A stretch of DNA of 64,000 nt from Chiloscyllium plagiosum (lineage: Eukaryota): positions 28,925,861 through 28,989,860 of the forward strand of contig NC_057746.1 of assembly GCF_004010195.1 (NCBI RefSeq), given 5' to 3'. Positions 125 through 41,400 of the stretch are shown piece by piece; positions within the stretch are counted from its first letter, which is position 1, and each line of letters starts with the position of its first letter. The position numbers and the translations under genes were made by a program. The notes below the pieces were generated by a model. The model ran no database searches and was not told the origin of the DNA. It was given only the letters and a program-made list of their open reading frames with translations.

Positions 125-244
125 ATTCCTTCTTCCCCGGTGTTTCCGGATGGCTGACAGCGTTCTGGATCCTGTTTGCTCTGACTGTTGCAGTAGTCAC
201 TCTCACAGTGTGGTACCATCGGAGATTACAGAATAAGATTCAAG
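125..244 (+). CDS. Gene 1 transmembrane exon (DSFFPGVSGWLTAFWILFALTVAVVTLTVWYHRRLQNKIQ)
   Basis: Pyrimidine tract then acag|, 120 nt, donor |gtgaca; hydrophobic helix; closely matches 31010-31129. Confidence 0.9.
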
Positions 245-1983
245 GTGACAAACTGAGCTCAAACTCTGAGAACTTTTTGCAAAAACTAATCATGAACTGA
301 ATCTAATAATTTGTTAAAAGAAAGTAAAACAGTGCTAGAAATACTCCACAGATCAAGCAGAAGCTGTGGAGAGAGAGGTGGGCACGGAGAACAATGTTAA
401 TATTTCGGGGAATAAGATTTCATTTTTAGTGAGGTGTGCAATGAACAGTGTAATGAGGAGCCTGTTCATTGCAGTCTGACTCTGATGGCATCTCCCGAGG
501 TCATGGTGCCCATTAGATTCATTAATTTATTTGATTTTCTTTTCCAGGCCTCAGGAAATCTGAAGGTAAATGATGTTTCTTCAGCCTGTGGGACATGTGC
601 TGATGTTACACTGACTCTAGCTGTTGAGGAATTTCACACACTCACCCTGACCTTTACTGTTTCTGTCCTGAGAGCAGTCAGACCCCTTCCTGTATGTTGC
701 TGATCTTACCAGTCACCTGGAGGGTCCATCGGTCTGTTCCTGTTGGTCCTTTCTGTGAGTATACCCTTTCCTTCACACACACCCTCCTGACCAGATTCTC
801 TATCCCATTCTGACGTTTCCTGTTGTGACAGTGCTGTACCTTTAAGAGAGAGATGTTCTGCACCTGTTTCCTGTTGCAGAGGCATTTCGTCAGAGTGGTC
901 ACATAATGCCTCCTTCAGATGGGAAGTTGGTAAACTGTGTTTAATTTCTCTCTGGGTATTTGTTTTGAAGAATAATAAGGGAGTGGTGAGATGGCTCACA
1001 CAGACCCAGAAGGGCAATTTTATTTAATGAGATGGTTTCAACAGGTTGCTGAGCTAAAGGCTTGAGTTCTTGGCTGCTAGAGTGAAGTCTTACACAATGA
1101 GTGTTCCTGCTAGACATCAAAAGAGGCAGTTTATTTCTTTGGTCTGGACTGGAAAGAGACTCTCCATAAGAATCAAAACTGTTTTGCTGAATTGATGTCA
1201 AAGAGTGTGCTTTGTGTCTATGTTGGATCATTTGATTAGTGCTTAAATATTGCAATATCTTGTTAAGTATTTCAATAGAGTTAAAGTTATTCCAATTCCT
1301 TTTTAGTTGTATTTTAACTGTGTTATAAGAATAAAGTGTGTTTTGATTAAAGTCCAGTAGTGGGCCAATTGAATCACATCTGTAATACAGTGCCTTGCAC
1401 TAGCTGTAAAATCATTATAAATGTTAGTGTCTCTTTACAATACTTTATGTGGGGTTGAGGTGTACGGTATAGTCCATAGCATTCTCTCCCAACTCTCTCA
1501 ACTTCCTCCCCTGTTTCTTTCCACTCTCCCGTGCTCTCTCCCACTTCTCTCCCTTCCATCTATGCTCTTTCTCCCCCAACTCCCTACTTTTTCTCATGTG
1601 AGTCTCTTCACCTCTCTCATCTTCACACAATGCCCTCTCTCACTCTCTCCCCCTCTTCTCCATGCAACTTTCTTTCAATTTCAATTGTACAGGTCCTCTC
1701 CTCCTTTCTCATCCTCTTGCTCCTTCTCCTCTCCCTCCTCCTTCCTTCTCACCTTCACCTTTCCTCTCTCCCAAACACCCACTCTTCTTCAGTTCCTCCT
1801 CCTTTCTTCCTGTCCTCCTCCTCTTCCCCTCTCTAAACCTTTACCTTTTCAGATTCCTTTTAGAGTCAGGGAGAGTGGATGATGTGATTTGGGTGACACA
1901 CGCTGCTCTGGGGATGGGACAGTGTTCAGTGTGAGGGGAAAAGAGATGCTGCTAATTTAATGTTTTCTTTTGACCAGTTACAG

Positions 1984-2004
1984 AACATCAAAGGTTGCTG
2001 GATG
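1984..2004 (+). CDS. Gene 1 21-nt micro-exon (EHQRLLD)
   Basis: ttacag|aacatcaaaggttgctggatg|gtgagt; flanks align to the gene 2 exon 33078-33104. Confidence 0.85.
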
Positions 2005-4750: not shown

Positions 4751-4777
4751 AAATTGAGAAACTTCAGCAGAAGTTAG
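4751..4777 (+). CDS. Gene 1 27-nt micro-exon (EIEKLQQKL)
   Basis: ctcttcag|...|gtaaga; flanks align to 37190-37216. Confidence 0.85.
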   Translation, partial: KLRNFSRS

Positions 4778-4948: not shown

Positions 4949-4975
4949 AGCAATGGAGGCCTCTGGTCCAGTCAG
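4949..4975 (+). CDS. Gene 1 27-nt micro-exon (EQWRPLVQS)
   Basis: ccttttag|...|gtatgt; same peptide as 41720-41746. Confidence 0.9.
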
Positions 4976-5304: not shown

Positions 5305-5331
5305 AGTGGAACAGGATACGGAGCTATGCAG
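5305..5331 (+). CDS. Gene 1 27-nt pre-B30.2 micro-exon (EWNRIRSYA)
   Basis: tttgcag|...|gtaaaa; identical to 42990-43016. Confidence 0.9.
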
Positions 5332-5754
5332 GTAAAACGCTGGGTGCAGCAGACTCTGTGTTTTTGTATTGTGTAGTACCGCATGGGCAGGCTGTCTATC
5401 TTCATCACCCTGTTCTGGCAGACCAAGAACCTCTCCCACCCCTACCGCCTGCCATTGGCTTATCAGAAGGATTTACAAGATGGCTGATCAATCTGTTTGG
5501 CCATGTTATGACAGAAACTCCACAGATACGAGTTGTGAAGTGGAACTTGAACCTGAAGTTTCTGGCCCAGAGGCAGTGAGGTTGCTCACTGTACCACATG
5601 ACCTTCTCAGGGTTTAAGACAATTTGACAGTCTCCAGTCACTTTTGCTGACATCACATCTTTATTCCACTAATTTTCTTTCCAACTATTTCTCCAATTCT
5701 CAAACTGCACTGGTGGAATTGGAATTCACCTTCTCTGGGCTTTGGTTCAGCGAC

Positions 5755-6090
5755 ATGGAGAGGCAGTGCCCAGACAATTAATCTAGAGAACCAAGTAATG
5801 ATCTAGGGACCAGGGTTCAAATCCTACCATGGCGGATGGTTGCATTTGGATTCAATTAAAAGTCTGGAACTGAGAGTCTAATGATGACCAAGAAACTGAT
5901 GCCAATTGTCATGAAAAAGCCATCTGGTTCACTGATGCCCTTGAATGAAGGAAACTACAATTTTTACCCTGTGTGTGGCCTACATGTGACTCCAGACTCT
6001 CAGCAATGCTGCTGACTCTTAACTGCCCTCTGGGCAATGAGGGACAGGCAATAAATGCTTGATGGGCCAGTGACACCCTCACCCTGTGAA
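5755..6090 (+). mobile_element. SINE-like element; related sequence at about 8520-8840 and 48890-49260 (-)
   Basis: B-box-like GGTTCAAATCC head; shared body and ggcaataaatgc tail. Confidence 0.55.
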
Positions 6091-7019
6091 TATAAAATGA
6101 ATCACTGCAGACTGGTAAAAAGAGACCCCATTTTATAAAGCACGAGAGGAAGTTGCTAATTGGTTCGGCTATCTTTGATGTGGAGATGCAGCAAGAGCTT
6201 TCAATTCTTTATTCTCAGACCAGATCCTGGTTGGCCTGGGAAATACAATGAAAATGCAGCAGGGAATATTTACACCCTTCATTCTTTCTTTTATAATTCA
6301 TTTGTGGGACTTGGGCATCACTGGATGGCCAGAATTGATAGCCCATCCCTATTTGTCCTTGAAAAGGTGGTAGTGAGTTGCGATTTGGAGATGTTGGTGT
6401 TGGACTGGGGTGTACAAAGTTAAAATCACACAATTCCATGTTATAGTCCAACAAGTTTAATTGGAAGCAATAGCTTTCAGAGTGCTGCACCTTCATTGGG
6501 TGGTTGTAGATTGTAAGACACAGAATTTATAGCAGAAGTTTACAGTGTGATGTAACTGAAATTATCCATTGAAAAATACCTTGATTTTTTTGTTCAGTCT
6601 CTCATCTGTTAAAATTACCCTGTTAGTTTCACTTCTTTCATACGTAAATCACAAAACTTTTTTTAAAAGTTACATTCTCAAGTGGACTTTATCTTGGCTG
6701 GTACCAACTATTAATGTATTGAAGGTGCGAGCTCTCCTGTGTGACTGTTTGTGCCTCAATGGTTAGACTGATTCTATTCTAAAAAATACATTTACAGAAT
6801 CTTACGTGGATTCATGCAGTTTTTGAGCAAAGAAAAATGTAATTCTCCAAGTACAAATTCACCCCACAAAATTATGTGTATGTGTGTGTGTGTGTGTGTG
6901 GGGGGAGGGGGGGGGGGGTGTTTATGTATGTCTGTGAGAGTGGGTGCATGTGTGTGAGTGTCAAGGGGTATAAGTCTGTGAGAGGGTACATGTGTGAGTG
7001 TATGTGTATGCAATATCAA

Positions 7020-8420
7020 GTGCCTCCAGCCGTTCCTTGATATCATGTGGAATGAATCAAATTGCCTGGAGATTGGTAGCTGGGGACCACTGGAGGAGCA
7101 CGAGATGGATCATCCACTCAGCACCTCTGACTGAAGATTTTTGTGAATGCATCAGCCTTATCGTTTGCACTGATATTTTGGCCTCCTCTATCATTGAAGC
7201 CTCCTCCTCCTCCAGTGAGTTGTTTCATTATCCACCACCATTCATGACTGGATGTGGAAGCATTGCAGACCTTATACCTGAACCATTGGTTGTGGGATTA
7301 ATTAGCTCTACCGATCACTTTCTGTGTATGCCATTTGGCATGCAAATAGTCCTGTATGGTAGCTTCACCAGGTTGACATTCATTTTTAGGTATGTCTGAT
7401 GCTGTTCTTGGCATGCCCTCTGCACAATCCATTGAACAAGATTTGATGCCCTGGCTTGATGTTAATGGTTGAGTGGGGGGATATGCCGGGCCATGAGGTT
7501 GCAGAGTGTGCTGGAGTACAGTTCTGCAGTACAGATCTGCTGTTGTTGATGGCCTGCAGCGCCTGACGCATGCCCAGTCTTGAGCTGCTAAATCAGTTAA
7601 ATCTGTCTCATTTAACACAGTGATAGTGCCACACAACATGATGGAGGTTATTCTCAATGTGAAGGCGAGGCTTCTTCTCCACAAGTACAGTGTGGTGGTC
7701 ACTTTTACTTATACTGTCATGGACTGATGTTTCTGCAGCCGGCAGATTAGTAAGGATGAGGTCAAGTAGCATCTGAGGAAATACTGATTTTCCTGCTCTC
7801 CGGATGCTGCCTGACCTGCTGTGCTTTTCCAGCACCACTCTGATCTCCAGCATCTGCAGTCTTCAGTTTTGCCTAGGATGAGATCAAGTATATTTCCTTC
7901 ACTATCTGCCGCAGACCCAATTTTGCAGTTATATCCTTTAGGACCCAACCAGCTTGATCAGTAATACTGCTGCCAAATCACTCTTGGTAGTGGACATTGA
8001 AATCCCCACACAGAGTACATTTTGCACTTTTGCACCCTCAAGTTTCTCCAAGTGTTGTTCAACATTGAGGAGTACTGATTCGTCAGTCAAAGGAAGGTGG
8101 TACATAGTAACAAGGAAGACGTTTCCTTGCCCATGTTTAACCTGAAGCCATGAGACTTCATGGGGTCCAGAGTCGCTGTCAAGGACTCCCAGGGCAACTC
8201 CCTCTGGACTGTATACCACTGTGCCACCACCTCTGCTGGATCTGTCCTGCCAGTGGTACAGTCCATATCCACAGATGGTAGTGGTGGTGTCTGGGTGTTA
8301 TCTGTAAGGTATGATTCCGTAAGAATGACTATGTCATGCTGTTGTTTGACTAGTCTGTGAGACAGTTCTCCAAATTTCAGCACTAGCCCCCAGATGTTGG
8401 TAAGGAGGACTTTGCATGGT
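7020..8420 (-). mobile_element. Decayed LINE endonuclease region
   Basis: DIVILTESYL and SDHHTV motifs of an APE-type endonuclease in broken frames. Confidence 0.7.
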
Positions 8421-9442
8421 CGACAGGGCTGTTTGTATTTTCGCTGTTGTCTTTTCCAGTTTCAAAGTTGAGGCCAGGTGGTCTGTCCAGTTTCATTTCT
8501 TTGTTGTGACTTTCTAGCAATTGATAAAACTGAGTGCCTTGCTAAGCTATTCCACAGGGCAGTTGAGAGTCAACCACAGTACTGTGGTTCTGGAGTCATA
8601 TGTTGGTCGTACCAGCTAAGGATGGCAGATTTCCTTCCCTAAAGGGAAATCAGTGAACCAGATGGGTTTTTCAGACAATTGCTAATGGTTTCATGGTCAT
8701 CAGTTAACTCTTAATTCCAGATTTTTTTTATTGAATTCATAGTCCACCATCTGCCATGGCAGGATTTGAACCCAGGTCCCCAGGACATTATTCTGGGTTG
8801 CTGGATTAATAATCGGGTGATAATACCACTAGGATACTGCCTCCTCCTGCACTCCTTCCTATTTGAAGTACTCAACCTCCCCAACCCACTTTTTCTGATA
8901 CTCCTCACACTTCCCTCTCCCTCCCCTTCCTGATCTCCTACCTCACTTCCCCCTCTTGTCCCTTTCCTCTCCCTCCCTGTTTTCCTTGAATTGAGTAACC
9001 AGCTTTACTGTATACTCAAATGAGTACATCGAAAAGTTTGAAGTAACATTTCGGATAGAGTGAATTCTGAGGAAGGGTCTCTCCACCCGAAATGTTAACG
9101 CTGATTTCCCTTCACAGATGCTGCCAGACCTGCTGAGCTTTTCCAGCGATCCCTGTTTTGACACTGAAACGTTTATAATTTGCAGTTTACAACACCACCT
9201 TAGGTACATTCCCAAATTACAGAATAGAGAAAAGTTCCATTACAGCGATACACAAGAAGCAAACATCAGAGTCCCCCTCCAAAGTCTTTCCTGCAGCAGA
9301 CCACGGAAGGGGGAACCTTCTCATGGTCTGACCATTGGCTGTCCCCGCTCCCAGACCGGGCCACTCCCGCCACGGTCTGCATTGGGCCGCTGCTCCTCAG
9401 AGACCCCGCCTCCTTCACCCTCCTCTCTCTCCCTCCCTCTCC

Positions 9443-10239
9443 CTGACGGTGTTATTTGATCTCTCCCCCAGCTCCAGCCTCTCTGACTCTGGATCCGAAC
9501 ACAGCGCATCCCCGGCTCATCCTGTCTGAGGACCGGACCAGTGTGAGACTCGGAGACACAGAGCAGCTGCTCCCTGACTCCCCGGAGAGATTTGATTCCT
9601 GTCACTGTGTCCTGGGATCAGAGGGATTCACATCAGGGAGACATTACTGGGAGGTGGAGGTTGGGGAGAAGACGGAGTGGGGTCTGGGAGTGGCCCGAGA
9701 GTCTGTGGAGAGGAAAGTGAGGACCTTCCCGAGACCGGATTCTGGATTGTGTGGCTGGTACCCGGATGTGGTTATTTAGCCGCCACCTCCCCCTCACGGA
9801 CCCCCCTCTCCCCGAGTGTGAATCCCCGGAAGATCGGGGTTTTCCTGGACTATGAGGGTGGACAGGTGTCATTTTACAATGCGGACACCATGTCCCATCT
9901 CCACACTTTCACCCACACTTTCACTGAGAGGATCTTTCCCATCTTCAATCCGGGAGGGAATGACGGCGGGAAAAACTCCGCCCCGCTGACAATCTGCGGG
10001 ATTAAAGGGCACTGACAGATCCATCCCATAATTTCACCCCGTCCCCCTGCCTCCTGCCAGCTGTAGACTGATGGGGGTCGGTCTCAATCTGGAGGAAAGA
10101 AGGAGGGGGAGAGAAGAAACAAAGAGAAGCTCAATTGTAGAGAGGGACTGACTGGGTAGAGTGAGCTGTGAGCTGCAGGAACCCGGGGACCTTCCTGCCT
10201 GTAATGTTGCTCCACAGGCGGGAGGTGGCGTTACATGAC
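9443..10239 (+). repeat. ~0.8-kb duplicated block (acceptor, B30.2 exon, 3' flank); inverted copy at 50949-51733
   Basis: Direct by-eye alignment from ctgacggtg to tacatgac. Confidence 0.9.
9472..10015 (+). pseudogene. TRIM-type B30.2 (PRY/SPRY) terminal exon with internal frameshift
   Basis: ORF 9456-9779 gives [21 protein letters not shown]...[26 protein letters not shown] 9677-10015 gives PETGFW...[32 protein letters not shown]. Together they make one B30.2 domain split across two frames. Acceptor ctctcccccag| at 9471. Confidence 0.9.
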
Positions 10240-10294
10240 GGTGTTGGGGATGTATCAGTCAGTGGTTCTAAGACTTGGGCTCAGGGGAGTCGTT

Positions 10295-10430
10295 CGAGGG
10301 GGGACACCAAATCATTTCACTGCAGGGTCAGAGGAGTCTTTCCTGGGGGAGACCAAATCATATGCCTGCAGGGTCAGTGGGATCTTTCCGGGGGGGGGGG
10401 GGGAGAGACCAAATCATTTCATCGCAAGGC
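10295..10430 (+). repeat. ~45-bp tandem repeat, about 3 copies (ggggagaccaaatcat...gcagggtcag)
   Basis: accaaatcat recurs three times. Confidence 0.7.
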
Positions 10431-11929
10431 GCAGAGAGAATAATGTGTGGAGAAACGATCGTCCTGTTTACTTTAAATTTGCAGAAGTGAGAGTTATTCC
10501 TGCAGGGGCAGCAGTCCCACAAATCTCCCGAATTCTCATTTTCATGGTGCCGGGCTGAGATTTACTTTCGGGAGGAGGGGAGGGGAGCTGGGAGGTGAAC
10601 TGCTGTGATAATCGACTCTTCAATTTGGATCAGGCAGGGAGCTCGTCTCGTTCTTACGCTGTCTTGACCATTGAGTGTTGCATCTTGTTTTTGTTAATTG
10701 GATTTCTTTCTTGTAATCATAATAAAAATGTCAGAGATTTTATTCAAACTTTCACCATATCCCATACATGATTTAATAATAGGGAGAAAATTAACTAAGT
10801 TTGCTCAGGTCTGTAAATATTGTCCAGGAAAATAAAACAAAATTGGAGGGAAGGAAACTCCTATGATTATGGGAGCTTGTTTTACATTAGAATGGGAAGC
10901 TGCCTTGAGACTATTTGTGTATCCACATGGAGTGAGATTGCTGTAACTACTGATTTGCAAACGTTTAGATGGTGGGTGAGCTGGCCGCTTGTGGATATCA
11001 TAGTCATATAATACTTAACCATTTCATAAACAGTTCAGTTGGTGCACACGCATGTGGGTGGAGCCACCGTTATTATTTATTCCTCATTTCTTGCTCTTTC
11101 ATCGTTCTGTACATAGTGAAATGATCCTTAAATCACCATAATGTAAATGCCTGTTTTAATAAAAGCATTACTCAAATAATCTCTGTATTTAACCTGTTCA
11201 GATTGCGTCTGTCCATGTACAATTAAAATTTGCAATGGTGTGCAGGATAATACTTGAAAGTAGTTTCTTCAATCAAAAAATCTAAGTTTCACTGGAACAC
11301 AAACAAAATTTCTTAAAAATAAATAAATGCAAGAAACAGTAAATAAACCTGCTGTTTGTTTTACTTGCAAATTTCTCCAGAATTTGTGTCTTTGCATCTG
11401 CTATTCCCAACTCACCTGGATTATTTTGAGTCTCCAGGTGAAGGCCGTGGAGTGATAGTTGCCTGGAAAGTTTCCTCAGTCATTGCCATGTCGAGATGGT
11501 CATGAGGTGGGCAGTGGGAACGTCCACCTGCTTCAACCTTTGAGGCTGTAGGCACACTTCAATAAGACTGTTCAGCTGTTCCCCATCCAGTGTCTGCATC
11601 CATGCAGCCCTGCATTTATTTAAAGATTCTATTCAAGTGTTCATTCAAATCAGGTTAAAAGTTAGGTGTCTGAATGTTGTAAAATTATAATTGTTTCAAC
11701 TTGTTCAAAACTAAAGTGTAAACACAAAATAAGCAGCAACAGCCCAGTGACACCAACTTCCATGATGGGAACTTTTAAAAATAATCTTGGACGCAGTTAG
11801 ACAAGTATAGTTTAATTGAGGAAAGCCAGCAGGGGTTTGTTAAAAGCAAATCATGTTTAATTGTATTAATTAAGCTTTTTCATGAAGACATGGTTCTGAT
11901 CGAGATGGGAATGTATTTCTGGACTTAGA

Positions 11930-26362: not shown

Positions 26363-26402
26363 ATGTTTCTTCTGCTCTGGATTCTCGTTTGGATCTTTCA
26401 TG
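26363..26402 (+). CDS. Gene 2 signal-peptide exon (MFLLLWILVWIFH; exon probably starts 26319)
   Basis: ATG plus hydrophobic stretch, donor catg|gtaggg; joins in frame to VVTAEA of the IgV exon. Confidence 0.8.
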
Positions 26403-29400
26403 GTAGGGAAATACATCTGCAAGATACAAAAACCCGTTTGCTCTTTTGTATTTTGCTGTTGGGATCACTTGACAAGTCATTGAACCCTGAGCTAGAATTT
26501 CTTCTGTTTCTCACTCTTCATGTTTATCTATTCCTCACTTTGTTTTTGTCTCTTTGTCTCCAATCTCTGCCTCTATCCCTCACTGTCCCTCTGTCTGTCC
26601 TTTTCCACCACTCTATTTCTCCCTCTCTGTTCCTCCCTCTCTGCCTCGCCCTCTTACTCTGTTACAAATGTTAATATACAGCTGTGATCTAAGCGATGAC
26701 CAGTTGATCTGACTCTCTCTCCAGTGGTTACTGCAGAAGCGGTGACAGATTTTGCAGTGACAGGACCACCTAACGCTATCATAGGGGTTGTCAAGGGAAA
26801 CGTGGTCCTGGATTGTCAGTTGGTGCCAGCCAAAGCCCCAAAGAATATGGAAGTCCGCTGGATCAATACAGTCAATGGCTACAACTCACCTGTCCACATG
26901 TACAAGGAGGGAGCAGATGATTTGACATTCCAGCCTTTGGCCTACAGAGGCCGGACTGAACTGTTTCTCAATGAAGTGGCGCAAGGGAATCTCTCCCTCA
27001 GGCTCAAGGATGTCCAAGTCTCTGACGGGGGACAGTACAAGTGCTTTGTGGCATCTGATGAAAAACACCATGAGGTCAAACTCACGCTGAATGTGGCAGG
27101 TCAGTGACCATTTTGGAAACACCCTGTTTGACCTCCTCAGTGAAGGGTTTATTAAGGTGAAGGATTAAAATTCCTCTAAACCCTGATAGAGCAAAAATAG
27201 TTTGAGACCCTGACAGGATCAACACTGAGAGTCTATTTGAGGAATGTAGAACACAGGGACGCAAACTCAGAATAAGGGGACCATCACTTGGCACAGAGAC
27301 GAGAGGTTAATGTGGAGGCCAAGTAGTTGAGTGTATTTAAGATAGAGGTTTATAGGTTTTTGATTGGCAAAGGGATCAAGTGTTATGGGGAGAAGTCAGG
27401 AAAATGGGTCTGAGAAACATATCAGTCATGATTGAATGGTGGAACATAAGCGATTGACCAAATGGCCAAAGTTTGCTGATATATCATATGTTCCAACACC
27501 TGGCCCGTAGACCTGTATGCTTCAGTACTGTAAAAGCACATCTAAATAATTCTAAAGGCGTGAGTTGTGGATTCCCACCACCCTCTGAATGAAAACATTT
27601 TTCCTGACATCCTCTTGAACCCTCCTGCCCTTCACCTTAAATCTCTATCACCAGGTCATTGAACCCTCCACCAAGGGAATAAGTTTCTTTCTGTCTACCT
27701 TAATCTCTGCTCTTCATAATTTTATGTATCTTCTAATCATGTTTTCCCCCCACCACCCCTCCCCATCTGTCAAATTTGGGGCGGCACAGTGGTTAGCACT
27801 GCTGCCTCACAGCACCAGGGTCCCAGGTTCGGTTCCAGCCTCGGGCGACTGTCTGTGTGGAGTTTGCACATTCTCCCTGTGTCTGCGTGGGCACGCTCTG
27901 GTTCTCTGGTTTCCTTCCACAGTCCAAAAATATGCAGGTTAGGTGAATTGGCCATGCTAAATTGCCTGTAGTGTTAGGTGAAGGGGTAAATGTAGGGGAA
28001 TGGTACTGGGTGGGTTGGTCTTCGGAGGGTCAGTGTGGACTTGTTGGGCCGAAGGGCCTGTTTCCATACTGTGAGTAATCTAATCTAATCTCAGTTGCCT
28101 CTGGTCAACAGAAACAACTCCAATCTGTTTAAACCTGAAACAATTTTTAAAAAAAACGGACTGGAGAAAACCTGGAAATCTGACAGCATCTGCACAGGGA
28201 GAGAAACCAAGTTAGTAAGACTTTTTAAAGAGGGAAAAATTCAGAGGATTCCATCCATTCTTCCCATCTGGGATTGTGATTTTGCTTCTTTGAAACCATG
28301 GTCGAGAGTTTTGGTCTTGACATAATTGTCAGGGCAGCATTAACTTACTGTTAAATAAATTATGTCTTTGGTCTGACTTGAGTTCCATAAGTTTCCAGGA
28401 AAACCCATTTGCAAGTTGTTAATACTAAATAGTTCATAGGCACCTGCAAATGTGTTTAGTCACTGAAATTTTGAACAGAGACGAGTCCACCTTGTGAGGT
28501 TGTACACTTTTTGTGCGGAGACTATTTTCTTAACAGAGAAAGGTTTCAGAAATCTGAAGTGCAAAGGGACTTGGGAGTCCAAGTTCCTGATTCGGTTAAG
28601 GTTAACGTGCAAGTTCAGTTGGTAGTTTGGAAGGCAAATGTACTGTTGGCATTCGTTTCAAGATGGGTAGAATACAAGAGTAGGGATTTATTGCGGAGGC
28701 TGTATAAGGCTCTGGTTAGGCCTCATTTCAAAATTTGTAGGGTGGTTTGGGCCTCTTTTCTCAGGAAAAATGTACTGATGTTGGATGCAGGTCCAGAGGA
28801 AACTTATAATGACTATCCTGGGGATGAAGAGCTTTTCACATAGGAGAAGTTGAGGACCCTGGGCTTGTACTGGATGGAGTTTAGCAGGATGGGAGGGGTC
28901 TTCAGATTGAAATTTACAGAATACTGAGAGGCCTAGATAGATTTGTCGTGGAAGAGTTGTTTCCACTAGTAAAGGAGACAGGACCCAAGGGCAAGCCTAA
29001 GAGAGAAAGTATAACCTTTTAGAACTGAGATGAGGAGGAATGTGATAATCATTGTTACATATGGTTGCGGAGACTAAATCATTGAATGTATTTAACATAT
29101 AGATGGATGGGCTCATAAGGGGATGAAGGGTTACAGGGAGAAGATGAGAGAATGGGGTTGAGAAACATATGAGCCATGATTGAATGCAGTGCAGACTCGA
29201 TGGGCTGAATGGCCTAATTCTGCTACTATGTGCTATGGAGCACTCTGGATTCAAATCGGGTTAAAGTAACTTTAGAACAATGCCAGAGAACCATGTTCTG
29301 ATCCATGCAAGTCAGTGAATTTATAGTGAATTAAAAATTTCTGCGATGTTTATGCAATTTAAAAAGTTGTACTTGACTATTTTTTAAAAAAACTTCATCC

Positions 29401-32400
29401 TGTGGCCTCTTTGAAGGCCCAGAAACAAGGGTTATTTGTAAAAACTTTGCCCTGGTGTCTAATTTGTTCCCTGGGTAATTCCTGTCTGGACTGTTCCTCT
29501 CTCATCTCTCTGAGTGTGGTTTCTTCCTCCCTCCTTGCCCTGACAGATTGTGATCGAACCCTGGTTACCCTGTGTGGAGGGGATTATGAAAGCACAGGTC
29601 AGCTGCAATCTGACCGAGTGGTGTAGGGAGGCCATGACAGACTTTGCGGCCTACTCCCCTTCCTGATGTCTCTGTGATTGCAGGTACAGGCCGCCAGCCC
29701 AGGATCGAGCTGGAGGGCCAAACGGGCGCTGGCATCAGACTGGGCTGCAGATCCGAAGGGTGGTACCCACAGCCGCCCGTCCTGTGGGTAGATGGAGGTG
29801 GTGTGAACGTGACGGCCCAGCAGCAAACCACGTACCAGCCGGACCCTCAGGGGCTGTTCACTGTCAGCAACTCCATCAAGATCTCCAAGCACTCCCCCAA
29901 CAAGTACACTTGTGTCATTAACAATGTGATCCTGAAGGAGACACAGGAGGGTCACATCCAGATCGCAGGTCAGTCATGGTGGGAGAAGACTTTCCCAGAT
30001 ACTCAGCGGGCTGGGGGAAAGGACTTGAATCAAATTATTGAGAAATATAAAAGCCCGAGGAAATGCTGTGATTGAAATAGGCTCCTCATTGCCACTTGTC
30101 TCTGACCAGGGCCAAGGTCAGCCTCTCACGGCTACAGCTTGCCCGTCGTGGCAACAAAAAAGGCATTTTACCAGGAGAGAGGGAGTGATGGAGATTTGAG
30201 AGAGAGTGAGAGACTGCAACAGAAAGCGAAGGAGAGGGTGTGATGGAGAGAGAAGGAGAGGGTGTGATGCAGACTGGGGGAAGGAGAGGGTATGACAGAA
30301 GTGGGGAGGGAGAGGGTTGAATTGAGTTTGCGAAAAGAGAGAGAGGTGATGGACAGAGAGTGGTTGTTGGAGGGAGAGGGAAATAATGGAATGGTGGGTT
30401 CAGGAGAGGGAGATGAGTAAAGGAGGAGGGAGGGATGGAGAGGGGAGGGGTGATATAAACTGGAAATGGGGTGTGCCAATGGCTTTGTGTTAACTCAAGC
30501 AACTGGTTCATTTTCTCAAAGTCTCCCTTTTTCTGTTTTCCCCCATCCCCATCTCTCCCTTAATATCTTCCATTCTCCCTCTGCCTTTCTCTTTCCCCCT
30601 CTCACCCTTACTCTTTCTCCCTTCTCTCCTGTCCCACTTCCACACCTCCATCTCGCACCCCTTTCTTTCTCCATCTCTCATTCTCATCTCTTTCTTTTTC
30701 TGTATTTTTTTCCTTCTATCTCCCCATGTCCTCCACCTTTATGCCCATTCNNNNNNNNNNNNNNNNNNNNNNNNNNGGTGATGAAATGAGCAATATCTCT
30801 TTTTCTCTCTCTTTTTCTTTTTCTCTTTCTCCCTCATACACTGTCTCTTCCCTCCTCTCTTTCCTTCTCTCTCTTTCCTTTTCTATCTTTCTCCTATGCT
30901 CTCCATCACCCTCCCATCGTCCTCCCCCTCTGTCTCTTACTCCCATTCTCTCACTATCTCTGTCTCACTCTGACTGTCTCTGTCTCTCCTCATCTTTCTC
31001 TCGATACAGATTCCTTCTTCCCCGGTGTTTCCAGATGGCTGACAGCGTTCTGGATCCTGTTTGCTCTGATTGTTGTAGCAGTTGCTCTCGCAGTGTGGTA
31101 CCATTGGAAATTACAGAATAAGATTCAAGGTGACAAACTCTGCTCAAGCTCTTAGAACGTTTTTCAAGAATATTCGTAAACAGAATCTAATAAGTCATTA
31201 ACAGAAAATAAAACAGACAGTGCTTGTAACACTGCATAGATTAGGCAGAATCTGTGGAGAGAGAGAGACAGCGTTAGTGTTTCGGGGAAATAGGAGTATA
31301 TTTTTAGTGAAGTCTGTAATGAACAGTGTAATGAGGACCCTTTTCATTACGGTCCGACTCTGACTGTATCTCCCAAGGATATGGTGCCCATTGGATTCAT
31401 TAATTTATTTGGTTTTCTTTGCCAGGCCTCAAGATGTCTGATGGTTTTCTTGGTAAGTGATGTTTCTTCAATCTATGGGACATGTGCTGATGTTACACTG
31501 GCTCTTACTGTTGAGGACTTTCACACTCCCACTGTGACCTTTACTGTTTCTGTCCTGAGAGGGCTCCGACCCCTCCTGTATGTAACTGATCTCACCAGTC
31601 TCCGGGAGGTTCCCTCGGTCAGTTTCTGATCCAACCCTCAATTATCCAGCTGGGGCATTCTAGCATATAAACACTGCCTTGGTACCCGCACCCCCATCCC
31701 AAGACACTCCCTATCCCTTTCTGTTTCTTCCTCTCACCTAATTGTCTCTCTGCACTCCCCAACTCTCTACCCTGCTACTCTCTGCCCTCCCCCGCTACTC
31801 TTTTCCCCTCCCCAACGCACTCGCTTTCCTCTCCCCACCCCCACGCTCTCTCCCCCCACCGCGCNNNNNNNNNNNNNNNNNNNNNNNNNNNNNNNNNNNN
31901 NNNNNNNNNNNNNNNNNNNNNNNNNNNNNNNNNNNNNNNNNNNNNNNNNNNNNNNNNNNNNNNNNNNNNNNNNNNACATGTTCTCTTTCCCCCCCCATAC
32001 CGTCTCCTTCCCCTATCTTCCCCATTCCCTCCACACTCTCACCCCTCTCTGTCTTTACCTTATCTCTTCTCCCCAGTCTCTGCCTTTCCACCTCTCACTT
32101 TTCCCTCCTCCACGTTGTTCTCTTCCCGTTCTAATTGTACAGGGATTTGGTGAGATTGGAGCATTGAGTACAGCTTGTCTGCTTACCAGACTAAAGGTGT
32201 TCTGGTTGTGGACGTAGCACAATGTCGGCTTATCAGACTGTTGTGTGGGATAACAAGACTTGATCAATTAGATCTCTGAAGGGAGACTAGTTCACTTAGA
32301 ATTAATTTTTGGAGGTTCAAAGAATGAAGCTGAATCTCTCTACCCCTCTCTGTCTCTTTGCCCCTTTCCACCTGCACTCCTCATTCCATCAACTCCCATC

Positions 32401-35400
32401 CCATCCCCCCTACCCTGTCCCTCTATTTTCCCCACTCTACACCCTTCTCTCTACTCCTCTTTCTCTCTCTCATGCTCCTCCTCCCCCAACTTCTCCCTCA
32501 CTCTCTCCTTTCTCCTCCCCCTCTCTTCCTTCCTCACACTGCCTTTCTCTCTCTCTCGCTCTTTCCACATAGTTCTGCAATTACTTCTTGTCCTTTTTAA
32601 CTATTTCAGTGATTCCCTTCAGAAGGTTCCTGTTGAAAATCATGGGAAAAGAAAACCTTCTGGTACCTCTCTCATGTTTCTGTTTCCATTGTTTTGAGTC
32701 CATATCCTCTGTCAGTGACCCTCTCCCCAGTTTCTCTCCAGTTCATTCACTCTGATAACCAGACATTGGGTTCTTCTTCTTCTTCTCCTTCTTCTTCTTC
32801 TNNNNNNNNNNNNNNNNNNNNNNNNNNTCTCTCCCCCCCCTTCCTCCTCTCTTTCCCCCCCTTCCTCCTCCTCTCGCGCCTCCTTCCTGTGTGCTTCTCC
32901 CTCCTCCTCTTTTCCATTTCCTCCTCTCCCTCCCTTATATCTTTTAAGACTTTTTACAGTCGGGGAGAGTGGGTGATGTGATTTGGGTGGCGCACGTTGC
33001 CCTGGGATTGGGAAAGGGATAAGTGTGAGTTGCAAAGTGCTGCCACTGATTTAATGTTTTCCTTTGACTCATTACAGAACATGAAAGGCTGCTGGGTGAC
33101 ATGGGTGAGTTGCTGTTTGAAACATAAATGTGAAGGGAATGGGAAACCCAATGATGTGGAAATATAGTCACAGCATTTGAGAGAAGAACTCTAATCCTAG
33201 GCCTGGTGATGTAACGGTTAACAAATAGTTTGGGTTTGAAGGTCTTCATGGCATGAATAGTAAGAAATATTTGCTTTTCTGTAACACCTGTCACATTCTG
33301 AGAATATCTCAACGCATTTTATCGAAAATGATGTGCAGAACAAAATGAGAAGCCAGAGCAGGAGTCAGCTGGAGCAGGTTGAGCTGTTCCACTGTACAGC
33401 CTGATCTTGGCGGATTGACTTCTCTGCAATATCTCACGTAAAGAGCCTACATTTTTATTTTCCTGCATTTTTGATTGATGAGGCAAAGAATTCAGAAGAT
33501 TCACAGCCCATAGATTGAGGAGATTTCTCCTCATCGCAGACCTGAACGGGAAGAAAGGTTTTCAGAACTGTGGGTGGGTTGGCATTGAGAAGCGAAAGGA
33601 GGACGAGACTGTCGATATGTTCTGCAAGATGGAATAGTCAGGTTTTCTCCATTACAAAGATGAGTTTTATGTCTTGAATTAATTGTGGTTCTATGATGAA
33701 GTTTTGGCTTAAAGTTCCTATCCAGGGTTTGGGGACTAAACTCCAGGTTGACACTCCAGCACAGAGCTGAGGGAATGCTGCATTGTCAGAGGAGCTGCCT
33801 TTTAGATTAGGCTTCAATATGTGGTCTTTGAATGAATGGAAGCACATGCTGTGTCTCTAAGAAGAACAGATGAGGGCTCCCCAGTGTCCTGGCCAATATT
33901 TATCATGCGATTAACATCGGAGGAATGAAATGATCTGGTCATTGTCCTGGTTACTGTTTGTGGGATCTTGCTGTTCACAGGTTGGCTATGTAGAAGAATA
34001 CAGTGCAGAAGAGGCTTTTCAGCCCATCAGTCTATACTATAATGCTTCCTTTGTGATGAGATGTGCCTTTGAGAGGGATTTGTTCTGTCCTGGTTCTTGA
34101 AGAGAGGAATTGTAAACCTGGAGCCGAGGTGTCTGCTGCATGGACAGCAGAGTAAATAGCTTCTTCTTTAAAAAATTAAGCTGAAGAAGCCCGAGCACAT
34201 GGAGTCAGGCTCACAACGACCCAGCGTTTTAGTTTTGCTTTCAGTTGTTGAAGTTGGGGTTTTGGAGTGAAGCTACGAGATACAGCTCTCTCTTAGTTGC
34301 TACTAAAAGCTTACATTCCCTCTCTCTTTGCTGCTGGATTCATTCTGTTGGTTCCCCTTCTTCTGGACTGGAGGAGGTAGCAAGTGTGGAAAAACTGTTC
34401 TGCTGAATTTGCCTTCGCCAAGAGTGGGTTCATGGGATGCTGCAATATTGGAACAGTTGGTGTGTAGTAGTTAACTAGTATTTTATTAGGTCTTCAAGAG
34501 AGATAAAGTTGTGCCAATTCTTTGTTTTGAGTTTGCATTTTATTGTGGTGTCGGAATAGTGTTTTTCTCAAAGCCTGTTGGTTTGACCAATCAAGTCACA
34601 TTTACAAAGAAGGGCCTTACACTTGCCTCTAAATAAAAGTTCAGCTCTACGTTATCTTTTTATATGTTTGAGGAGGCTTGGTCTGGTCCATAACACATTA
34701 AATAGACAGTTCTGTTTCTATAAAACACTGGAGGACATATGGTCACTGTTAATTAAATCTAAATGAATCCTCTGTATTTTTCACCATTTCTTACATGGAT
34801 TATTTTTAAACTTTCAGAGCAAGAGAAGAGAAAGGTGAATGAAGGTTAGTAATCAGAAACCTGGGGATGCTGGGGACGGTTTCATTCAGACCCTGATTGT
34901 GTTTCTGTGCAGTTTCAAGACTGGAGTCAATTTCAAACCGAGATATTGCAAGGTCACTTTATTGTCATCTCATTGAGGTGTTTTCACGTTTTTTTTTAAC
35001 AGAGTATCAAAGACTGCACCAGGAGATAGGTAAGAACATGAAATCAATTGGATAGAAGGGAGTTGTGGGTGGATTATCCCCAGAGCAAGACAGTGGGAGA
35101 GTGATGGGAAAGCGGGATGGTAACTCTGACTGGGACCAGATTCTAGTGGGACAGAAACAGTCTTGGAACAACGTAGAACTCATTGCAAATCCCCTGATGG
35201 GTCTGCCATAAAGCAGGTGCTGAGTGAAGGAGTGGGTTTGGGCCTCTGCCTTTCTGGGAGCAAGAGGAGGACAGACTTTGACCTGGTTACTGTCGACTCA
35301 GGATCACATCGTTGTTTGTTTATTCCATTTCAGAGAACGCGAAGCAAGCAGGGAAAAAAGGTGAGTTATGTGAACACACGTTGTTTGGATTGTAATGTTT

Positions 35401-38400
35401 CATTTCAGCATCAGCCCGTCTGAAGACAAGTTAACAGGTTTGTAAATAACTGTTAATGGCCATATCACCCAAACTGTTCCATCAAAATGAACATTAAATT
35501 GTAAATGAACATTAAATGATGTGAAGTGGATGAGTTAATTCAGTCACTTCTTCACTGTGAGCTAGTTATGTTCATTGATCTCAGAACTGGGATCCTTGAG
35601 AAGCAGACTTTCCAGGAATTTCTTGAGTTGATGCGAACAAATCCCGGAGCTGGGAATCTGTGGATATCTAGAAATACACTCCTCTTTAAATCACTATTTA
35701 TTAATATTGCAGCAAGTCTGGTGTGTTCACTACTTTCCAAAATGCTCACTGATCGAAACTGCCAGCAAATGCTAGGACAGACTTAGCATCAGTTTTAAGA
35801 GGCACTGGATTTATGAGGATAGAGTCTAATCAGAGAGTGAACGGCAAAATTACTCTGCAGAGGGTGGCACGGTGGCCCAGTGGATAGCACTGCTGCCTCA
35901 CAGCGCTAGGGACCTGTGTTTGATTCCAGCCTCGGGCAACTGTCTGTGTGTACTTTACACATTCTCCCTGTGTCTGTGTGGGTTACCTCCCACAATCCAA
36001 AGATGTACAGGTTAGGTGAATTGGCTGTACTAAATTGCCCATAGTGTTCAGGGATGTGTCAGTTAGGTGCATTAGTCAAGGGTAATTGGTCTGGGTGGGT
36101 TACTCTTCAGATTGTCGGTGTAGATTTGGTGGGCTGAAGGGCCAGTTCCCACACTGTAGGAAAGAAAAGATTCCTATGATTTTGTTGTCTTTGCAACTTT
36201 GATAAAAAGGCTCATAAAACCTGAGCAGGATGCCTGGAGTTAATCACAGGCTTCTATTCAGAAGGAAGATTTAATCTTCCCATGAACACACACTCCTCCT
36301 GCTCCCTGAGATTGAGTGAGTTACACATTTTTTTATCAGGACATGTGTTTGTGAATCAGTCATTGATTTCATAATCGATTCTCTTCACAATTCTACAAAT
36401 AGTCAAATAACGTCTCCCATATTTCATTATTTTCTAGTCATTTCTAGTCTTTGACATTCTGATGTGAGGAAAAATGCATTCCTGACAACACAGTTTCATC
36501 TCATTCAACACCCTCTGACTGGGCTTTCACAGTCTAGCCTGTAAATTTGTGGCCATCCAGCACTCTATGTTTTCACTAACCCCTGTTCCACACCCATGTT
36601 TGTAGACCTACATTGGCTCCTAGTTGAAAAATGTCTCCATTCTTAATTTCCCACTCAATCCCCTCATGTCCTTGCCTTCTCTGCTCTGTAACTCTGACAT
36701 TCCTGTGCTCCTTTAATTCTAGCCTCTCGCATACCAAAAATTATAATTGTTCCTTCATTGGAGAGAACGGTTTCAGTTGCTTCAGTTCCAAACACTACAC
36801 CCCTACCCAAATCTCAATTTCCTTCTTTAAACACGGTCCCATGAAAACCTCCCTCATTGATAAAGCCTTTAGTCATCTGACCTAATACCTCACTGTGTAG
36901 CTGATATTTTTAAATGTAATATTTGAAGCATTTTGAGATGTAGTTGAAGAAAAACAGACTCTCTAAATGTATACGCAGTGTATTATCTGATAGGTGAGCA
37001 ATGCTATGCAAGAATTACTCATATAATAATTATTTTTAAAAAGTTTTTTTTGTCTAAACTTAAAAATATCTCTGAGAAATGATTTCAGGGATTTTTTTCA
37101 GTGACATTTCTGCTACAACCAATGATCTGATTTTACATTGCTTTGTTCTGCATATGACAAATTTTGCTCTTGTCTGTTTTTCTCTTCAGAATGTGAAGAA
37201 CTCCAGCAGTTGTACGGTAAGAGATCATTTCCAAAGCATTTTCTCTCTGGGTTTGGGTTCGCAGCTCATGTTCAGCACAGCTTTCTTCACCAGCATCGCA
37301 TTGGTCATGAGAAACTAAAGGCAATGTGGCGAAATACCCCAAGTTTATTCCTGGTGCTTTCAGCTTAATGGGTTTAGTTTTACTGGATATACCAAAGTGT
37401 TTGATGCCAACAGTCAGAGGTAGCTTTGTGCTATATCTAGTCCGTATCTGCATTTCCTGAGAGTATTTGATGGAACAGTAAAGAACAAGAAGATTTACAT
37501 TGTTCCTAACTATGCTGTACCTCCTGGGAATTTTTGATGGGGGTGGTATAGACAGACCTTCAATCTGATTCTAACCCTGTATTTTCCCTGACCCAGGAGT
37601 GTTTGATAGGATGGTTTTGAGGGAGCTTCACTTGATATCTAATTGTGTTATGCTGGAAGTATTTAATGGGACAGGGTAGAAGGATAGTTTTTATCCTGTA
37701 CCTAACCTGGTGGACTGGGTAATCTCATCACTGACCTGTGCAGGGCGAGGGTAGACCTGGATAATGTTCACCACATTCATTCCAGAAGCCTTGCAAGTGG
37801 TGGCATCTTCTAGAAGGTTCTATGCTTTAACATCTCTTTCTTTTCCTTTTTTACAGAAAAGAAAATGGCCATCATTATTGCAGGTAAGCAGGGAGCTGAG
37901 GAATTTCTGCTGGAGGAGAGGGACAGCAGATGTGTTATCAACTCTGGTTTGATGCACTTCTGGAGGTTTGGTCACATGACTTTGGTTGTGAGGAATTGGA
38001 GGAACAATCAAACAGGCCTTCCCCATCCCTCACTTTTTTTTCCCTCCAAACACCTTAATTATACCCCCTTGTGATAGCCATTTCTGTCCTAAAAAATCTC
38101 TGACTATTCACTCTGTCTCTGCCTGTCATCATCTTGTGCACCTCTATCAAATCGCCTCTCACCCTTCCTCGCTCCCATGAGAAAACCCTTAGCTTCCTCA
38201 ACATTTCTTCAAAAGACATGCCCTCCAGTTGAGGCAGCCTCCTGGTAAATCTCCTCTGCGCCTTCTCTAAATCTTCCACATGCTTCCTACAATGAGGTGA
38301 CCAAAACCGAACACAATATTCCAAGTGTGGTCTAACCAGGGCTCTGTAGAGCTGCAGCATAACCTTGCAGCCCTTAAACTAAATCCCCCAGCTAATGAGA

Positions 38401-41400
38401 GCCAACACACCATACGCCTTCTTAACAACCCTATCAACTTATTTTCTAAATTCAAAGACATTTAAATAATCCACACATTGTGTAATTCTGAGAGTTCCCA
38501 TTCCTGGGCAGTGGTCACTTTGACCAAGATATTGACCATTCCTTCCTGGAGAGTTGTTTCCCCGTGTTACTGAACATCTGTTCGTGTTCCAGCTGCTTCA
38601 TGTCTTCTGGGTTTTGTCTCTACTCTGAGGGAAAAGGCATAGAGTGAGAGAGATGTACAGCATGGAAACAGACCCTTCAATCCAACTCGTCCATGCTAAC
38701 CAGATATCCTAAAATAATCAAGTTCCATTTGCCAGCATTTAGCCCATATCCCTCTAAAGCTTTCCTATTCATATACCCATCCAGATTTGTTTTAAATATT
38801 GTAATTGTACCAGCCCCACCATGTCCTCTGATGGCTCATTCCATACACTCACCACCCTCTGCGTGAAAACATTTCCCCTTGGGTGCCTTTTAAATCTTAA
38901 GGTTTAAATGATCTTGTCTATTTATCCTCTTCATGCCCCACATGATTTTATAAACCTCCAGGGAAAACAGACCCAGCCTATTCAGCCTCTCCCTATAGCT
39001 CAAATCCTCAAACCTTGGTAACATCCCTGTAAATCTTTTCTCAACCCTTTCAGATTTCACAACATCTTTCCAATAGCATGAACTCTTCACTCCCCAGATG
39101 ATGCCAATGTTGGCCTGACCCAATGCTTGCCGTGGTATTCAGGTCGATGATTCCTGCTGTAGCTGGGGGTTTGCTGTGTGGGTACAGATGATACTGAGAA
39201 CCGTCGATTGGATTGGTGTTGCACTATCCACTGCTCCAGTTTGTGGTGGTAGATGCTTCCATGGGCTACTGCTGGTTCCTCCCAGACCGAGTGAGTCTGG
39301 CTAATGGAGACTGAGCTCAGAGCACAGAGGTCAATCTAGAGCACAGAGGACAACAAAAGATAGCAGAAAAAGAAGGTTGAGACATTGTGAAATTCAAATT
39401 TGTGATTAATGCCTCTCCCTTATCTATTACAGAACATGAACAATTTAAGAAACAAGTTGGTAAGTAATTTAATCAGAATTTTTATTTCTGTCGATGGCCA
39501 ATTCAAACCAAAGGCAGACTTACTGCAGCTCTTCCACAGTTCGTGCTCAGACTGGGGCCTGTTTCTCCATGTGTACTCAGTCTGGGGGCTGTTTCTCAGT
39601 CTCTGCTCAGGCTGGGGGCCTCTATCTGTGCTTGGGCTGAAGTCTGTTTCTCACTCTGTGCTCGAGCTGGTACCTGTTTCTCAGTCTGCGCTCAGCCTGG
39701 GGCCCGTTTTTCAGGCTGTGCTCAGGCTGGGGACCTGTTTCTCCGTCTGCGCTCGGGCTGGGGGCCTGTTTCTCAGTCTGCGCTCAGGGCTTAGGGGCCT
39801 GTTTCTCAGTTTGCGCTCGGGCTGGGGGCCTGTTTCTCAGTCTGTGCTCAGTCTGGGGGCCTGTTTCTCAGTCTGTGTTGGGGCTCAGTTACGTTACCAG
39901 TGTCGAGGAGCACACATTTTAGCCTTGATTTTCCATTTTATTAATATTGTATAATATCTCACTCGGGTCATTGTTCCATGCTATTGCTAAGTTCTTGATT
40001 CTGTCTTACAGATGAAGAGAGGGAGTCGGAGAAAGCAGGTATGTAACTGTGTGTGGGCCTGAAGAAGTGAAGTTCACCTCGACACTGGAGCAGGGAGGGA
40101 ACTGGGATGGTGCATGCTCTGACAGGGAACAGATTGAAAACCCAGAAGCAGACAGCAAATGCTTCTCTCTCTGCTAATTTTCATTCTCAGTCTCTCTGCC
40201 TCACTCGCATTTCATATTTTCTCTCGCTTTCCTCTCCCATTCTCATCTTCTGCTCCTCAGAATCTCTCTATCTGTCTCTCTCTCTGACACCCACACCCCA
40301 AATGCTCCCCAGGTTCTTTCTTTCTTTCCCTTTTTCATTCATTCTCTTCTGCTCTCCTTCCTCACCTTCGCCTTCTCTTCTGCTAATGTCTCTGCATCTC
40401 TGTCTCTCTTTTCCTCCTTGTGTCTCCCCATCCCTCTCCTCTTCCTGCTTGTTTTCTCCCCAGTTCTCCATCTCTCCCCTGCCCCCCCACCCCCAATCTC
40501 TACATCTATCTCTCCTTCTTTTCACAAAATGATTGGTTAGTGATCTAAAACAAAGAAACTCAGCAGTCCAGGGAACATCAGTTGAAAGAGGAAAAACTAA
40601 GTTAATGTTTCAAACCTATTTCATTGTTTTTGTACCATCTCCTTGTAAATCACTTGGTGCCCAAAGGCAGTATATGAACACAGGTCGGTTCATTTTTTGT
40701 TTGAAATCAGCTTTGGGAAATAACTACTGATAATAAAATTTGTATGTGTTGGTAAGTGTATAGTCAATTGTTTATTTGAAGATGTCAGCTCTTTGCTTTA
40801 ACCATTTCTGATCATTCCTTATTCACAGAATATCAGAAGCTACGCACTGAATTTGGTGAGTTAGCTGTCAGTAAAAATGTGCCTTCATCTTCAGCTCAGC
40901 TGCAGTTAGTAATTGAGCATAAAAAAAAAACAGGTTCAAGTCTGCACCATGCTTTCCCTCAGTTGGGTGTAATAATCTGGGATTGACTAGTCTCCCTCCT
41001 GGTGTTACAAATAACTTGTTTACTGAAACAGATTTCTAGACAGAGCTGCAGGCACTCATGAGAGATTGAACATCTAGAGATCATCATGTCTGTAAACGGC
41101 AACTTTGTAGAAAGTGATCTGGGCCTCCTCATTTTTAACTAAAATTATAGAGTCTGGATTCACTTTGAATTGATCACGTCCCAGTTAATAAACATGGATT
41201 GGGTATTTACTTTGCAGCAGGAAGACAAAGCTAGCTTTTATAAGGTGTTGCTGGGCAATGGGTCCAATTTTCGTCCCTTCAAATTTCGTTCAAGATGGAA
41301 ACTCAGGCAGTTCTATTGCAGGAGGCTAATCCTCCAGTGCTTCTCAGAAAATATACCCTTGCGTGTTCTTTACCAAATATGAAAATATTGGTGGGAGTTG

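Follow-up and report, generated by a model that had tools for sequence, protein, structure and literature searches.

A TRIM-derived B30.2 exon on a disabled carpet-shark butyrophilin gene: an old fusion, probably refreshed by gene conversion

Introduction

A founding join of Ig domains with a TRIM-like B30.2 domain is assumed for the butyrophilins (BTNs), an event too old to watch. Butyrophilins are described as founded by shuffling of Ig and SPRY domains in gnathostomes (PMC11788884), zebrafish show exon shuffling of B30.2 between finTRIMs and NLRs as well as gene conversion of NLR-B30.2 (PMC2657112; bioRxiv 10.1101/027151), and the human BTNL8*3 is a chimeric butyrophilin-like protein produced by a deletion between clustered genes (PMC3729544).

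Here we analyzed a locus of the carpet shark Chiloscyllium plagiosum in a window of 64,000 nucleotides (assembly GCF_004010195.1, contig NC_057746.1, positions 28,925,861 to 28,989,860), in which a butyrophilin gene, gene 1, ends in a B30.2 exon of TRIM type. The locus resembles the zebrafish system in that a single-exon B30.2 moves between immune families, would be homogenized by conversion between otherwise distinct groups and is variable in its exposed loops. In the shark, by contrast, the exon was received by a butyrophilin, a type I membrane protein, in place of the B30.2 it had lost; few copies are present (two, both broken), the animal is a cartilaginous fish, and conversion would cross two families, from TRIM to BTN. 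BTNL8*3, a polymorphism in humans, unites two BTNL genes, whereas the shark fusion links a BTN with a TRIM and is common to three genera. The ancient founding event involved the same domain pair, but the shark case is a later repeat in which an existing B30.2 was replaced. We found no earlier description in the literature searched of a butyrophilin B30.2 replaced by that of a TRIM.

Results

Structure of gene 1 and the fusion junction

The leader, IgV and IgC exons of gene 1 precede the window by 0.6-11.3 kb, and all of its exons within the window are on the forward strand. The transmembrane exon (125..244) is 92% identical in nucleotides to that of gene 2; both the IgC and transmembrane exons are open, at 92-93% nucleotide identity to gene 2. 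Short phase-1 heptad exons of 18 and 27 nt with AG/GT borders follow: a cytoplasmic mini-exon of 18 nt (548..565), recognized in the sequence and in agreement with database model P0074, and mini-exons of 27 nt at 1978..2004 (also in P0074, with a gene 2 homolog near 33077), 4751..4777 and 4949..4975. A GT..AG joint in a single contig from run X4, which derives from either gene 1 or gene 0, the tandem paralog upstream, connects the last two (4777 to 4949).

The last BTN mini-exon (5305..5331), which encodes EWNRIRSYA, is identical to 42991-43017 of gene 2, and the intron match to gene 2 then stops, as the first-pass annotation had noticed; we place the end at about 5687 (43265 in gene 2), so that the fusion intron is of BTN origin in its 5' portion (5332..5687). 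The breakpoint zone (5688..9408) consists of dispersed repeats and is common to gene 0 up to 6285 and from about 8890. It is followed by a TRIM-derived pyrimidine tract and phase-1 acceptor (9409..9471), where likeness to the TRIM copies starts at 9409-9444, by the TRIM-derived B30.2 (PRY/SPRY) terminal exon (9472..10015) and by a TRIM-derived 3'UTR (10016..11173), in which similarity is unbroken to about 10395, continues in patches to 11173 and includes AATAAA at 10721 and 11158. Entry into the 9472 exon through a phase-1 AG and its TRIM derivation agree with the earlier reading. Since the BTN and TRIM introns are both in phase 1, the join preserves the reading frame.

Origin of the 9472 exon

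Exons of the 9472 type occur at 40 scored places in the genome, with 84-95% nucleotide identity. At 5 of the 40, a RING and B-box are found 8-20 kb upstream, and 2 further places have a penultimate TRIM exon. The B30.2 coding sequence of gene 1 is 96.1% identical to copy L014 and 95.6% to L013 (both classed as TRIM solely by introns common to L012), its UTR is 97% identical to L013 and L011, and the exon is only about 44% like the B30.2 of gene 2. We built a quick tree of 67 B30.2s and a more careful LG+G4 tree of 33 rows; many inner branches are weakly supported, and the 9472 exon falls among TRIMs while 46948, the gene 2 exon, falls in a separate BTN clade, which is the arrangement expected in the first-pass annotation. 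Matches to human PDB entries do not sort the B30.2 types, that of gene 0 scoring 177 bits against TRIM21 and 170 bits against BTN3A1. Judged from sequence, the 9472 exon is of the kind that encodes the terminal B30.2 in the local cluster of RING-B-box TRIMs.

Other origins were considered for this exon. No RING or B-box was found in the window or in the 60 kb upstream of it, nor a penultimate TRIM exon within the window, and the end of an overlapping TRIM gene was discarded on these grounds. The segment 9260-9410 was discarded as the promoter of an independent TRIM gene, being a dispersed repeat present on many contigs. An expanded BTN family was likewise rejected as the source of the roughly 40 exon copies, as there are only four BTN IgV and three TM copies. 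Among the neighbors of gene 1, an orphan, broken TRIM terminal exon with its UTR lies on the reverse strand (50949..51736, exon 51705 to 51173), with 84% identity over 828 bp to the 9472 exon region; in its vicinity there is neither a RING or B-box nor a penultimate TRIM exon. Another BTN, gene 3, lacks a B30.2.

Gene 2 and the direction of replacement

Gene 2 (26363..47465, forward strand; supported by the N-terminal part of model P0141) is an intact canonical shark butyrophilin with a B30.2 exon of ancestral type at 46948-47465. No second copy of this B30.2 exists in the genome: of the 148 matches listed, the best after it reaches about 50% amino acid identity; a renewed search found no copy behind gene 1, in line with the earlier report. 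The same type was recovered in the BTNs of all five named non-orectolobiform elasmobranchs, and the split between it and the B30.2s of TRIMs plus chimeras is supported 100/100 in the 33-row LG+G4 tree. On this sequence evidence, the ancestral butyrophilin B30.2 is replaced by a TRIM terminal exon, in that direction.

Conservation of the junction in other carpet sharks

Gene 0 shares the fusion intron with gene 1 (85.9% and 72.8% identity) and is broken as well, yet its B30.2 exon is still open. The same junction is found in predicted intact genes of Chiloscyllium punctatum, Hemiscyllium (two genes) and Stegostoma: the automated gene models P0139, P0011, P0013/P0137 and P0012 join EWNRI(R/Q)S(Y/F)A to APASLTL. 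Pfam scans of P0139, P0012 and P0137 returned V-set, C2-set_3, PRY and SPRY hits, and these models predict IgV, IgC, TM, heptads and B30.2 in one frame. P0139 is collinear with human BTN2A1, BTN3A1 and BTN3A3 over residues 19-483 (E ~1e-90), a likeness of sequence that extends over the IgV-IgC-TM-heptads-B30.2 order. In a quick tree of ectodomains, the four chimeric ones form one clade (SH-aLRT 95). The fusion is almost certainly real, and we hold with considerable confidence that it originated once. The domain swap first noticed at this locus exists in the DNA; it is old and common to relatives rather than specific to the locus.

Lesions of gene 1

Gene 1 carries three lesions: its start codon is lost, its IgV exon contains a SINE, and 7 bp are deleted from its SPRY. 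Its leader has ATA in place of ATG, and a TGA follows the in-frame ATG that lies upstream; the IgV exon, upstream of the window, is interrupted by the 335-bp SINE, which carries stops; and the 9472 exon lacks 7 nt near 9730 in the assembly sequence relative to all intact paralogs. The deletion results in a TAG at 9777-9779, and the rest of the SPRY continues in another frame to the TGA at 10013-10015. The first-pass annotation did not notice these lesions, nor that the frame of the exon is closed by the stop at 9777. Gene 1 is very probably non-coding, and it is a disabled copy, unable itself to make the proposed sensor; of the exon-shuffling proposal, the TRIM exon on a BTN body stands and the role of this gene as a sensor falls.

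The join or the lesions could be assembly errors, since the assembly has 101,977 contigs with N gaps within the cluster, the 7-nt deletion site is known from the assembly alone and model P0074 handles the frameshift as correctable. There is, however, no N between gene 0 and the end of gene 1; DNA contigs of run X1, possibly the assembly's own source, match, with 0-1 differences, the stretches of the intron that they cover; and errors do not typically combine a SINE with a lost start and a 7-nt deletion. A mis-join is dismissed because the junction recurs in the predicted intact models of three other species, besides the paralog, and an artefact of either kind is barely credible.

RNA evidence

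At the gene 1 locus, the one covered by this analysis, no spliced joint from 5331 to 9472 or 9478 was present among the 15 joints listed of 1534, and there was no coverage of 4600-5768 in X24, a raw single-cell RNA run of which about 2% was read; as no spliced 5331-9472 read was seen, the fusion mRNA is deduced from the gene structure. Run X4 contains an exact unspliced contig at 5302-6044 with depth 58, falling to zero at 6103-6269. An AATAAA lies at 6050. These data suggest that gene 1 RNA can end inside the fusion intron. Together with an open read-through of 91 codons, they would also fit a BTN without B30.2, ending by read-through and intronic polyadenylation, that merely lies before an orphan TRIM exon and was joined to it by annotation pipelines; the true orphan at 51705 and gene 3 provide precedents for both parts. 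Such a juxtaposition is quite improbable, given that four predicted genes of three other species retain the join in frame and with an intact B30.2, and that the gene 0 exon remains open, against the decayed orphan at 51705.

Probable gene conversion after the fusion

The B30.2s of the chimeras are scattered among TRIMs, requiring six changes on the tree for six sequences, and their monophyly is rejected at p-AU 0.038 (protein, LG+G4), in a test that over-rejects slightly according to the tool. The DNA tree of B30.2 exons was built without L028, L035 and L043; at the nucleotide level, monophyly of the gene 0 and gene 1 B30.2s is not rejected (p-AU 0.26). At four-fold sites, gene 0 and gene 1 differ at 12/81 on the BTN side, and gene 1 and L013, the closest of 18 copies, at 2/92 in the B30.2 (Fisher p=0.004); gene 0 and gene 1 differ at 6/88 in the B30.2, which is not significant against the BTN side (p=0.13). 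Several TRIM copies are nearer to gene 1 than gene 0 is. The single ectodomain clade together with the scatter of the B30.2s indicates that the genes fused once, long ago, and that gene conversion probably renewed the exon afterwards; ongoing conversion from TRIM neighbors is fairly probable.

A single capture with no later exchange would require that purifying selection and slow shark substitution kept the exons similar and that the scatter is noise of hypervariable loops. The failure to reject monophyly of gene 0 and gene 1 at the nucleotide level and the weak inner branches of the trees are compatible with it. We regard it as unlikely, because the non-coding UTR of gene 1 differs at 7/230 sites from two TRIM-cluster copies and at 18/230 from its sister gene 0, the copies of the fusion intron in the two genes have diverged by 14-27%, and gene 0 is not the closest relative of the gene 1 exon.

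Discussion

We consider it likely that gene 1 is a broken carpet-shark BTN whose TRIM exon was captured through one old recombination and later probably overwritten by conversion. The recombination would have taken place between the last introns of a BTN and a TRIM gene before the Hemiscylliidae-Stegostoma split; it may have been an unequal crossover, or a deletion, that brought together a BTN duplicate and a TRIM on the same strand. Later conversion would have reached no further than the exon with its UTR and about 60 nt of preceding sequence.

In species with intact genes, the product may be a membrane BTN whose cytoplasmic domain would bind TRIM-type protein targets through its variable loops, with the coiled-coil stalk relaying the signal to the Ig ectodomain in the manner of mammalian BTN3A1 and phosphoantigens. 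By this analogy, a sensor function of the chimera in relatives is conceivable, though we propose it only tentatively. With still lower confidence, we speculate that carpet sharks may have a functional BTN sensor fed repeatedly by a TRIM conversion pool, reporting cytosolic TRIM targets (e.g. viral proteins) inside-out to T cells, and that vertebrate BTN B30.2s may have been repeatedly re-recruited from local TRIMs instead of forming one lineage.

The carpet-shark case repeats the founding join of butyrophilins recently enough that the donor family, the intron join and the direction are visible, with exchange probably continuing. Shark BTN names and whole-protein BTN trees should be used with caution, since they mix two B30.2 lineages. 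Additionally, the canonical gene 2 and the chimera coexist in one animal, a natural and testable comparison for the question of what butyrophilins outside mammals sense.

The butyrophilin genes of the locus

The window corresponds to G000:C37:28925861-28989860. BTN IgV copies number four genome-wide (4/4 candidates), all in tandem at this locus. In window coordinates, gene 0 spans about -41.7 to -26.6 kb, gene 1 runs from -11.3 kb to 10.0 kb, gene 2 occupies 26.4-47.5 kb and gene 3 lies at about 68.3-95 kb (from L007:5470 onward in the downstream DNA). Gene 3 is BTN-like, with IgV, IgC, TM and a short tail and without B30.2 in the database model P0141, which wrongly joins it to gene 2; it groups as sister of Stegostoma P0007. 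The C. plagiosum model P0074, labelled 'LOW QUALITY PROTEIN', matches gene 1 starting at the IgC. Genes 0, 1 and 2 have IgC exons (-35500, -920 and 29685) of 92-93% mutual identity, above that of the IgV 3' halves (84-91%), possibly through conversion or constraint on IgC. A gene 2 intron contains a degenerate tandem repeat (~30-nt unit, 39529-39885), and promoter-like GC-rich stretches occur upstream of gene 2 (21700-22300) and in the orphan-exon region (53400-53950).

TRIM origin of the gene 1 terminal exon

As the first-pass annotation had described, genes 1 (5305-5331) and 2 have identical last BTN mini-exons, and the similarity between both genes ends in the following intron, fading at about 5687. 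The gene 2 B30.2 exon (46948-47465) is single-copy, the next best among the 148 matches listed being ~50% identical. The terminal exon of gene 1 (9472..10015) has matches at 40 scored places (of 210 candidates), with nucleotide identities of 84-95% and the majority on C37 at 27.7-29.7 Mb, and the similarity of these cluster copies to gene 1 begins only at 9409-9444 and extends through the 3'UTR. Five copies have a RING and B-box exon 8-20 kb upstream of them, a penultimate TRIM exon is present at two further copies, and most other copies have introns in common with these TRIM-linked copies; no TRIM 5' part was found in the window or the preceding 60 kb. On this sequence evidence, the final exon of gene 1 is a TRIM terminal exon sitting downstream of a BTN body.

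An inverted, decayed orphan TRIM terminal exon plus UTR was also observed at 50949-51736 (minus strand). Its similarity begins about 30 nt before the acceptor, the same point as in the chimeras, which suggests that the exon is copyable as a cassette. A very large B30.2 expansion occupies C37 at 27.5-34.4 Mb and 9.1-9.5 Mb, and this contig contains the majority of the 148 matches listed.

Lesions and expression

The annotation had proposed a TRIM sensor domain on a BTN scaffold; the exon replacement is real, but the gene 1 copy is disabled in its start, IgV and SPRY, lesions which that annotation had not noted. The leader ATG is ATA, and the preceding in-frame ATG is followed by TGA. The IgV is broken by a 335-bp SINE-like repeat, classed as a putative SINE on its 6 dispersed copies in the window. 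In this assembly the terminal exon lacks 7 nt, near 9730, that intact paralogs have; its reading frame terminates at 9777-9779, and the SPRY domain is divided between two frames. Gene 1 in the window is a pseudogene. Gene 0 is built in the same way and its TRIM-type B30.2 is open, but its IgV carries frameshifts and its IgC a stop; since both genes are disrupted, the assembly holds no intact chimera.

Reads from four runs were aligned to 4600-9600. In run X24 (raw single-cell RNA, about 2% read) the BTN exons had zero depth. In X4, a run of a kind not on record that behaves like RNA, one GT..AG joint links exon 4751 to exon 4949, with gene 1 or gene 0 as source, and a contig at depth 58 matches 5302-6044 exactly; depth is zero at 6103-6269, and a repeat-borne AATAAA is found at 6050. 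The 5331-9472 splice joint was not found among 15 listed joints of 1534. Gene 1 is probably transcribed, and its transcript perhaps ends within the intron. Read-through past the last mini-exon (5305-5580) keeps the frame open for 91 codons, to a point within the intron, and the exact X4 contig covers this stretch; a B30.2-less isoform is possible.

Age and spread of the fusion

The intron between the mini-exon and the 9472 exon is common to genes 0 and 1 (85.9% over 971 columns and 72.8% over 592), indicating that the BTN-TRIM join is older than their duplication. Protein database searches (13 and 15 hits, word-limited) recovered full-length models that contain this junction from C. punctatum (P0139), Hemiscyllium ocellatum (P0011 and P0013/P0137) and Stegostoma tigrinum (P0012). 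The B30.2-bearing BTNs of 5/5 named non-carpet-shark species recovered (Scyliorhinus canicula, Heterodontus, Cetorhinus, Mustelus and the ray Hemitrygon) have B30.2s of the gene 2 type, at 56-74% to gene 2 and 41-44% to gene 0; as the searches were word-limited, chimera absence outside carpet sharks is weak evidence. In the B30.2 trees the gene 2 type stands apart as a clade (100/100) and each of the 6 chimeric domains groups among TRIMs, as the annotation had expected for the 46948 and 9472 exons. In a quick ectodomain tree the 4 chimeric bodies formed one clade (SH-aLRT 95), with support of 87 in an IgV-only quick tree including genes 0 and 1. These placements give the direction as TRIM to BTN, and we infer that the replacement happened, most simply once, in a carpet-shark ancestor. 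The replacement common to three carpet-shark genera is real. The B30.2 of a sturgeon BTN model, P0114, on a long branch, is 50% identical to the shark TRIM type and 37% to the canonical BTN type, a weak hint of recurrence in other lineages.

Probable exchange with the TRIM cluster

The six chimeric B30.2s are scattered on the tree (6 changes; monophyly p-AU 0.038, LG+G4). The gene 1 exon is nearer to the cluster copies L014 (96.1%) and L013 (95.6%) than to its sister in gene 0 (92.6%), and comparison of its UTR gives 7/230 differing sites with both L013 and L011, against 18/230 with gene 0. Of four-fold sites, 12/81 differ between genes 0 and 1 on the BTN side; gene 1 versus L013 gives 2/92 (p=0.004, uncorrected, L013 being the closest of 18 copies). 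Against exchange, DNA-level monophyly of the gene 0 and gene 1 B30.2s was not rejected (p-AU 0.26), and their four-fold difference (6/88) is not significantly below that of the BTN side (p=0.13). Exchange between the chimeric exon and the TRIM cluster probably continues. Across 11 intact cluster copies pN (mean 0.094) is above pS (0.083), with variation concentrated in short hypervariable patches, and this informal comparison suggests diversifying selection. Among Hemiscylliidae, chimeric B30.2s are 85-90% alike and canonical ones 94-96%.

Proposed mechanism and implications

Genes of the TRIM and BTN families, interleaved on the same strand, both finish with one phase-1 B30.2 exon. A deletion or unequal crossover may have joined the last intron of a BTN duplicate to the final ~60 nt of a TRIM intron, in a breakpoint zone now occupied by repeats; conversion would then have retained the exon within the TRIM pool.

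Close precedents are finTRIM/NLR B30.2 shuffling (PMC2657112) and conversion of B30.2 among groups of NLRs (10.1101/027151); domain shuffling is listed as a BTN origin (PMC11788884), and BTNL8*3 (PMC3729544) is an example of BTN-BTN fusion. In the text consulted, PMC12841164 places shark BTNs, including those of Hemiscyllium, on the MHC chromosome, and a B30.2 swap does not come up there. No published report of a TRIM-to-BTN swap was found in a literature search that covered few subscription journals; the chimeric proteins are already in databases, named simply as BTN.

The predicted BTN scaffold is collinear with human BTN2A1/3A3, and species with intact copies would have a normal BTN scaffold with a binding surface of TRIM type. 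Such a chimera could report cytosolic ligands to T cells, in analogy to the inside-out signalling described for BTN3A1 (PMC12841164).
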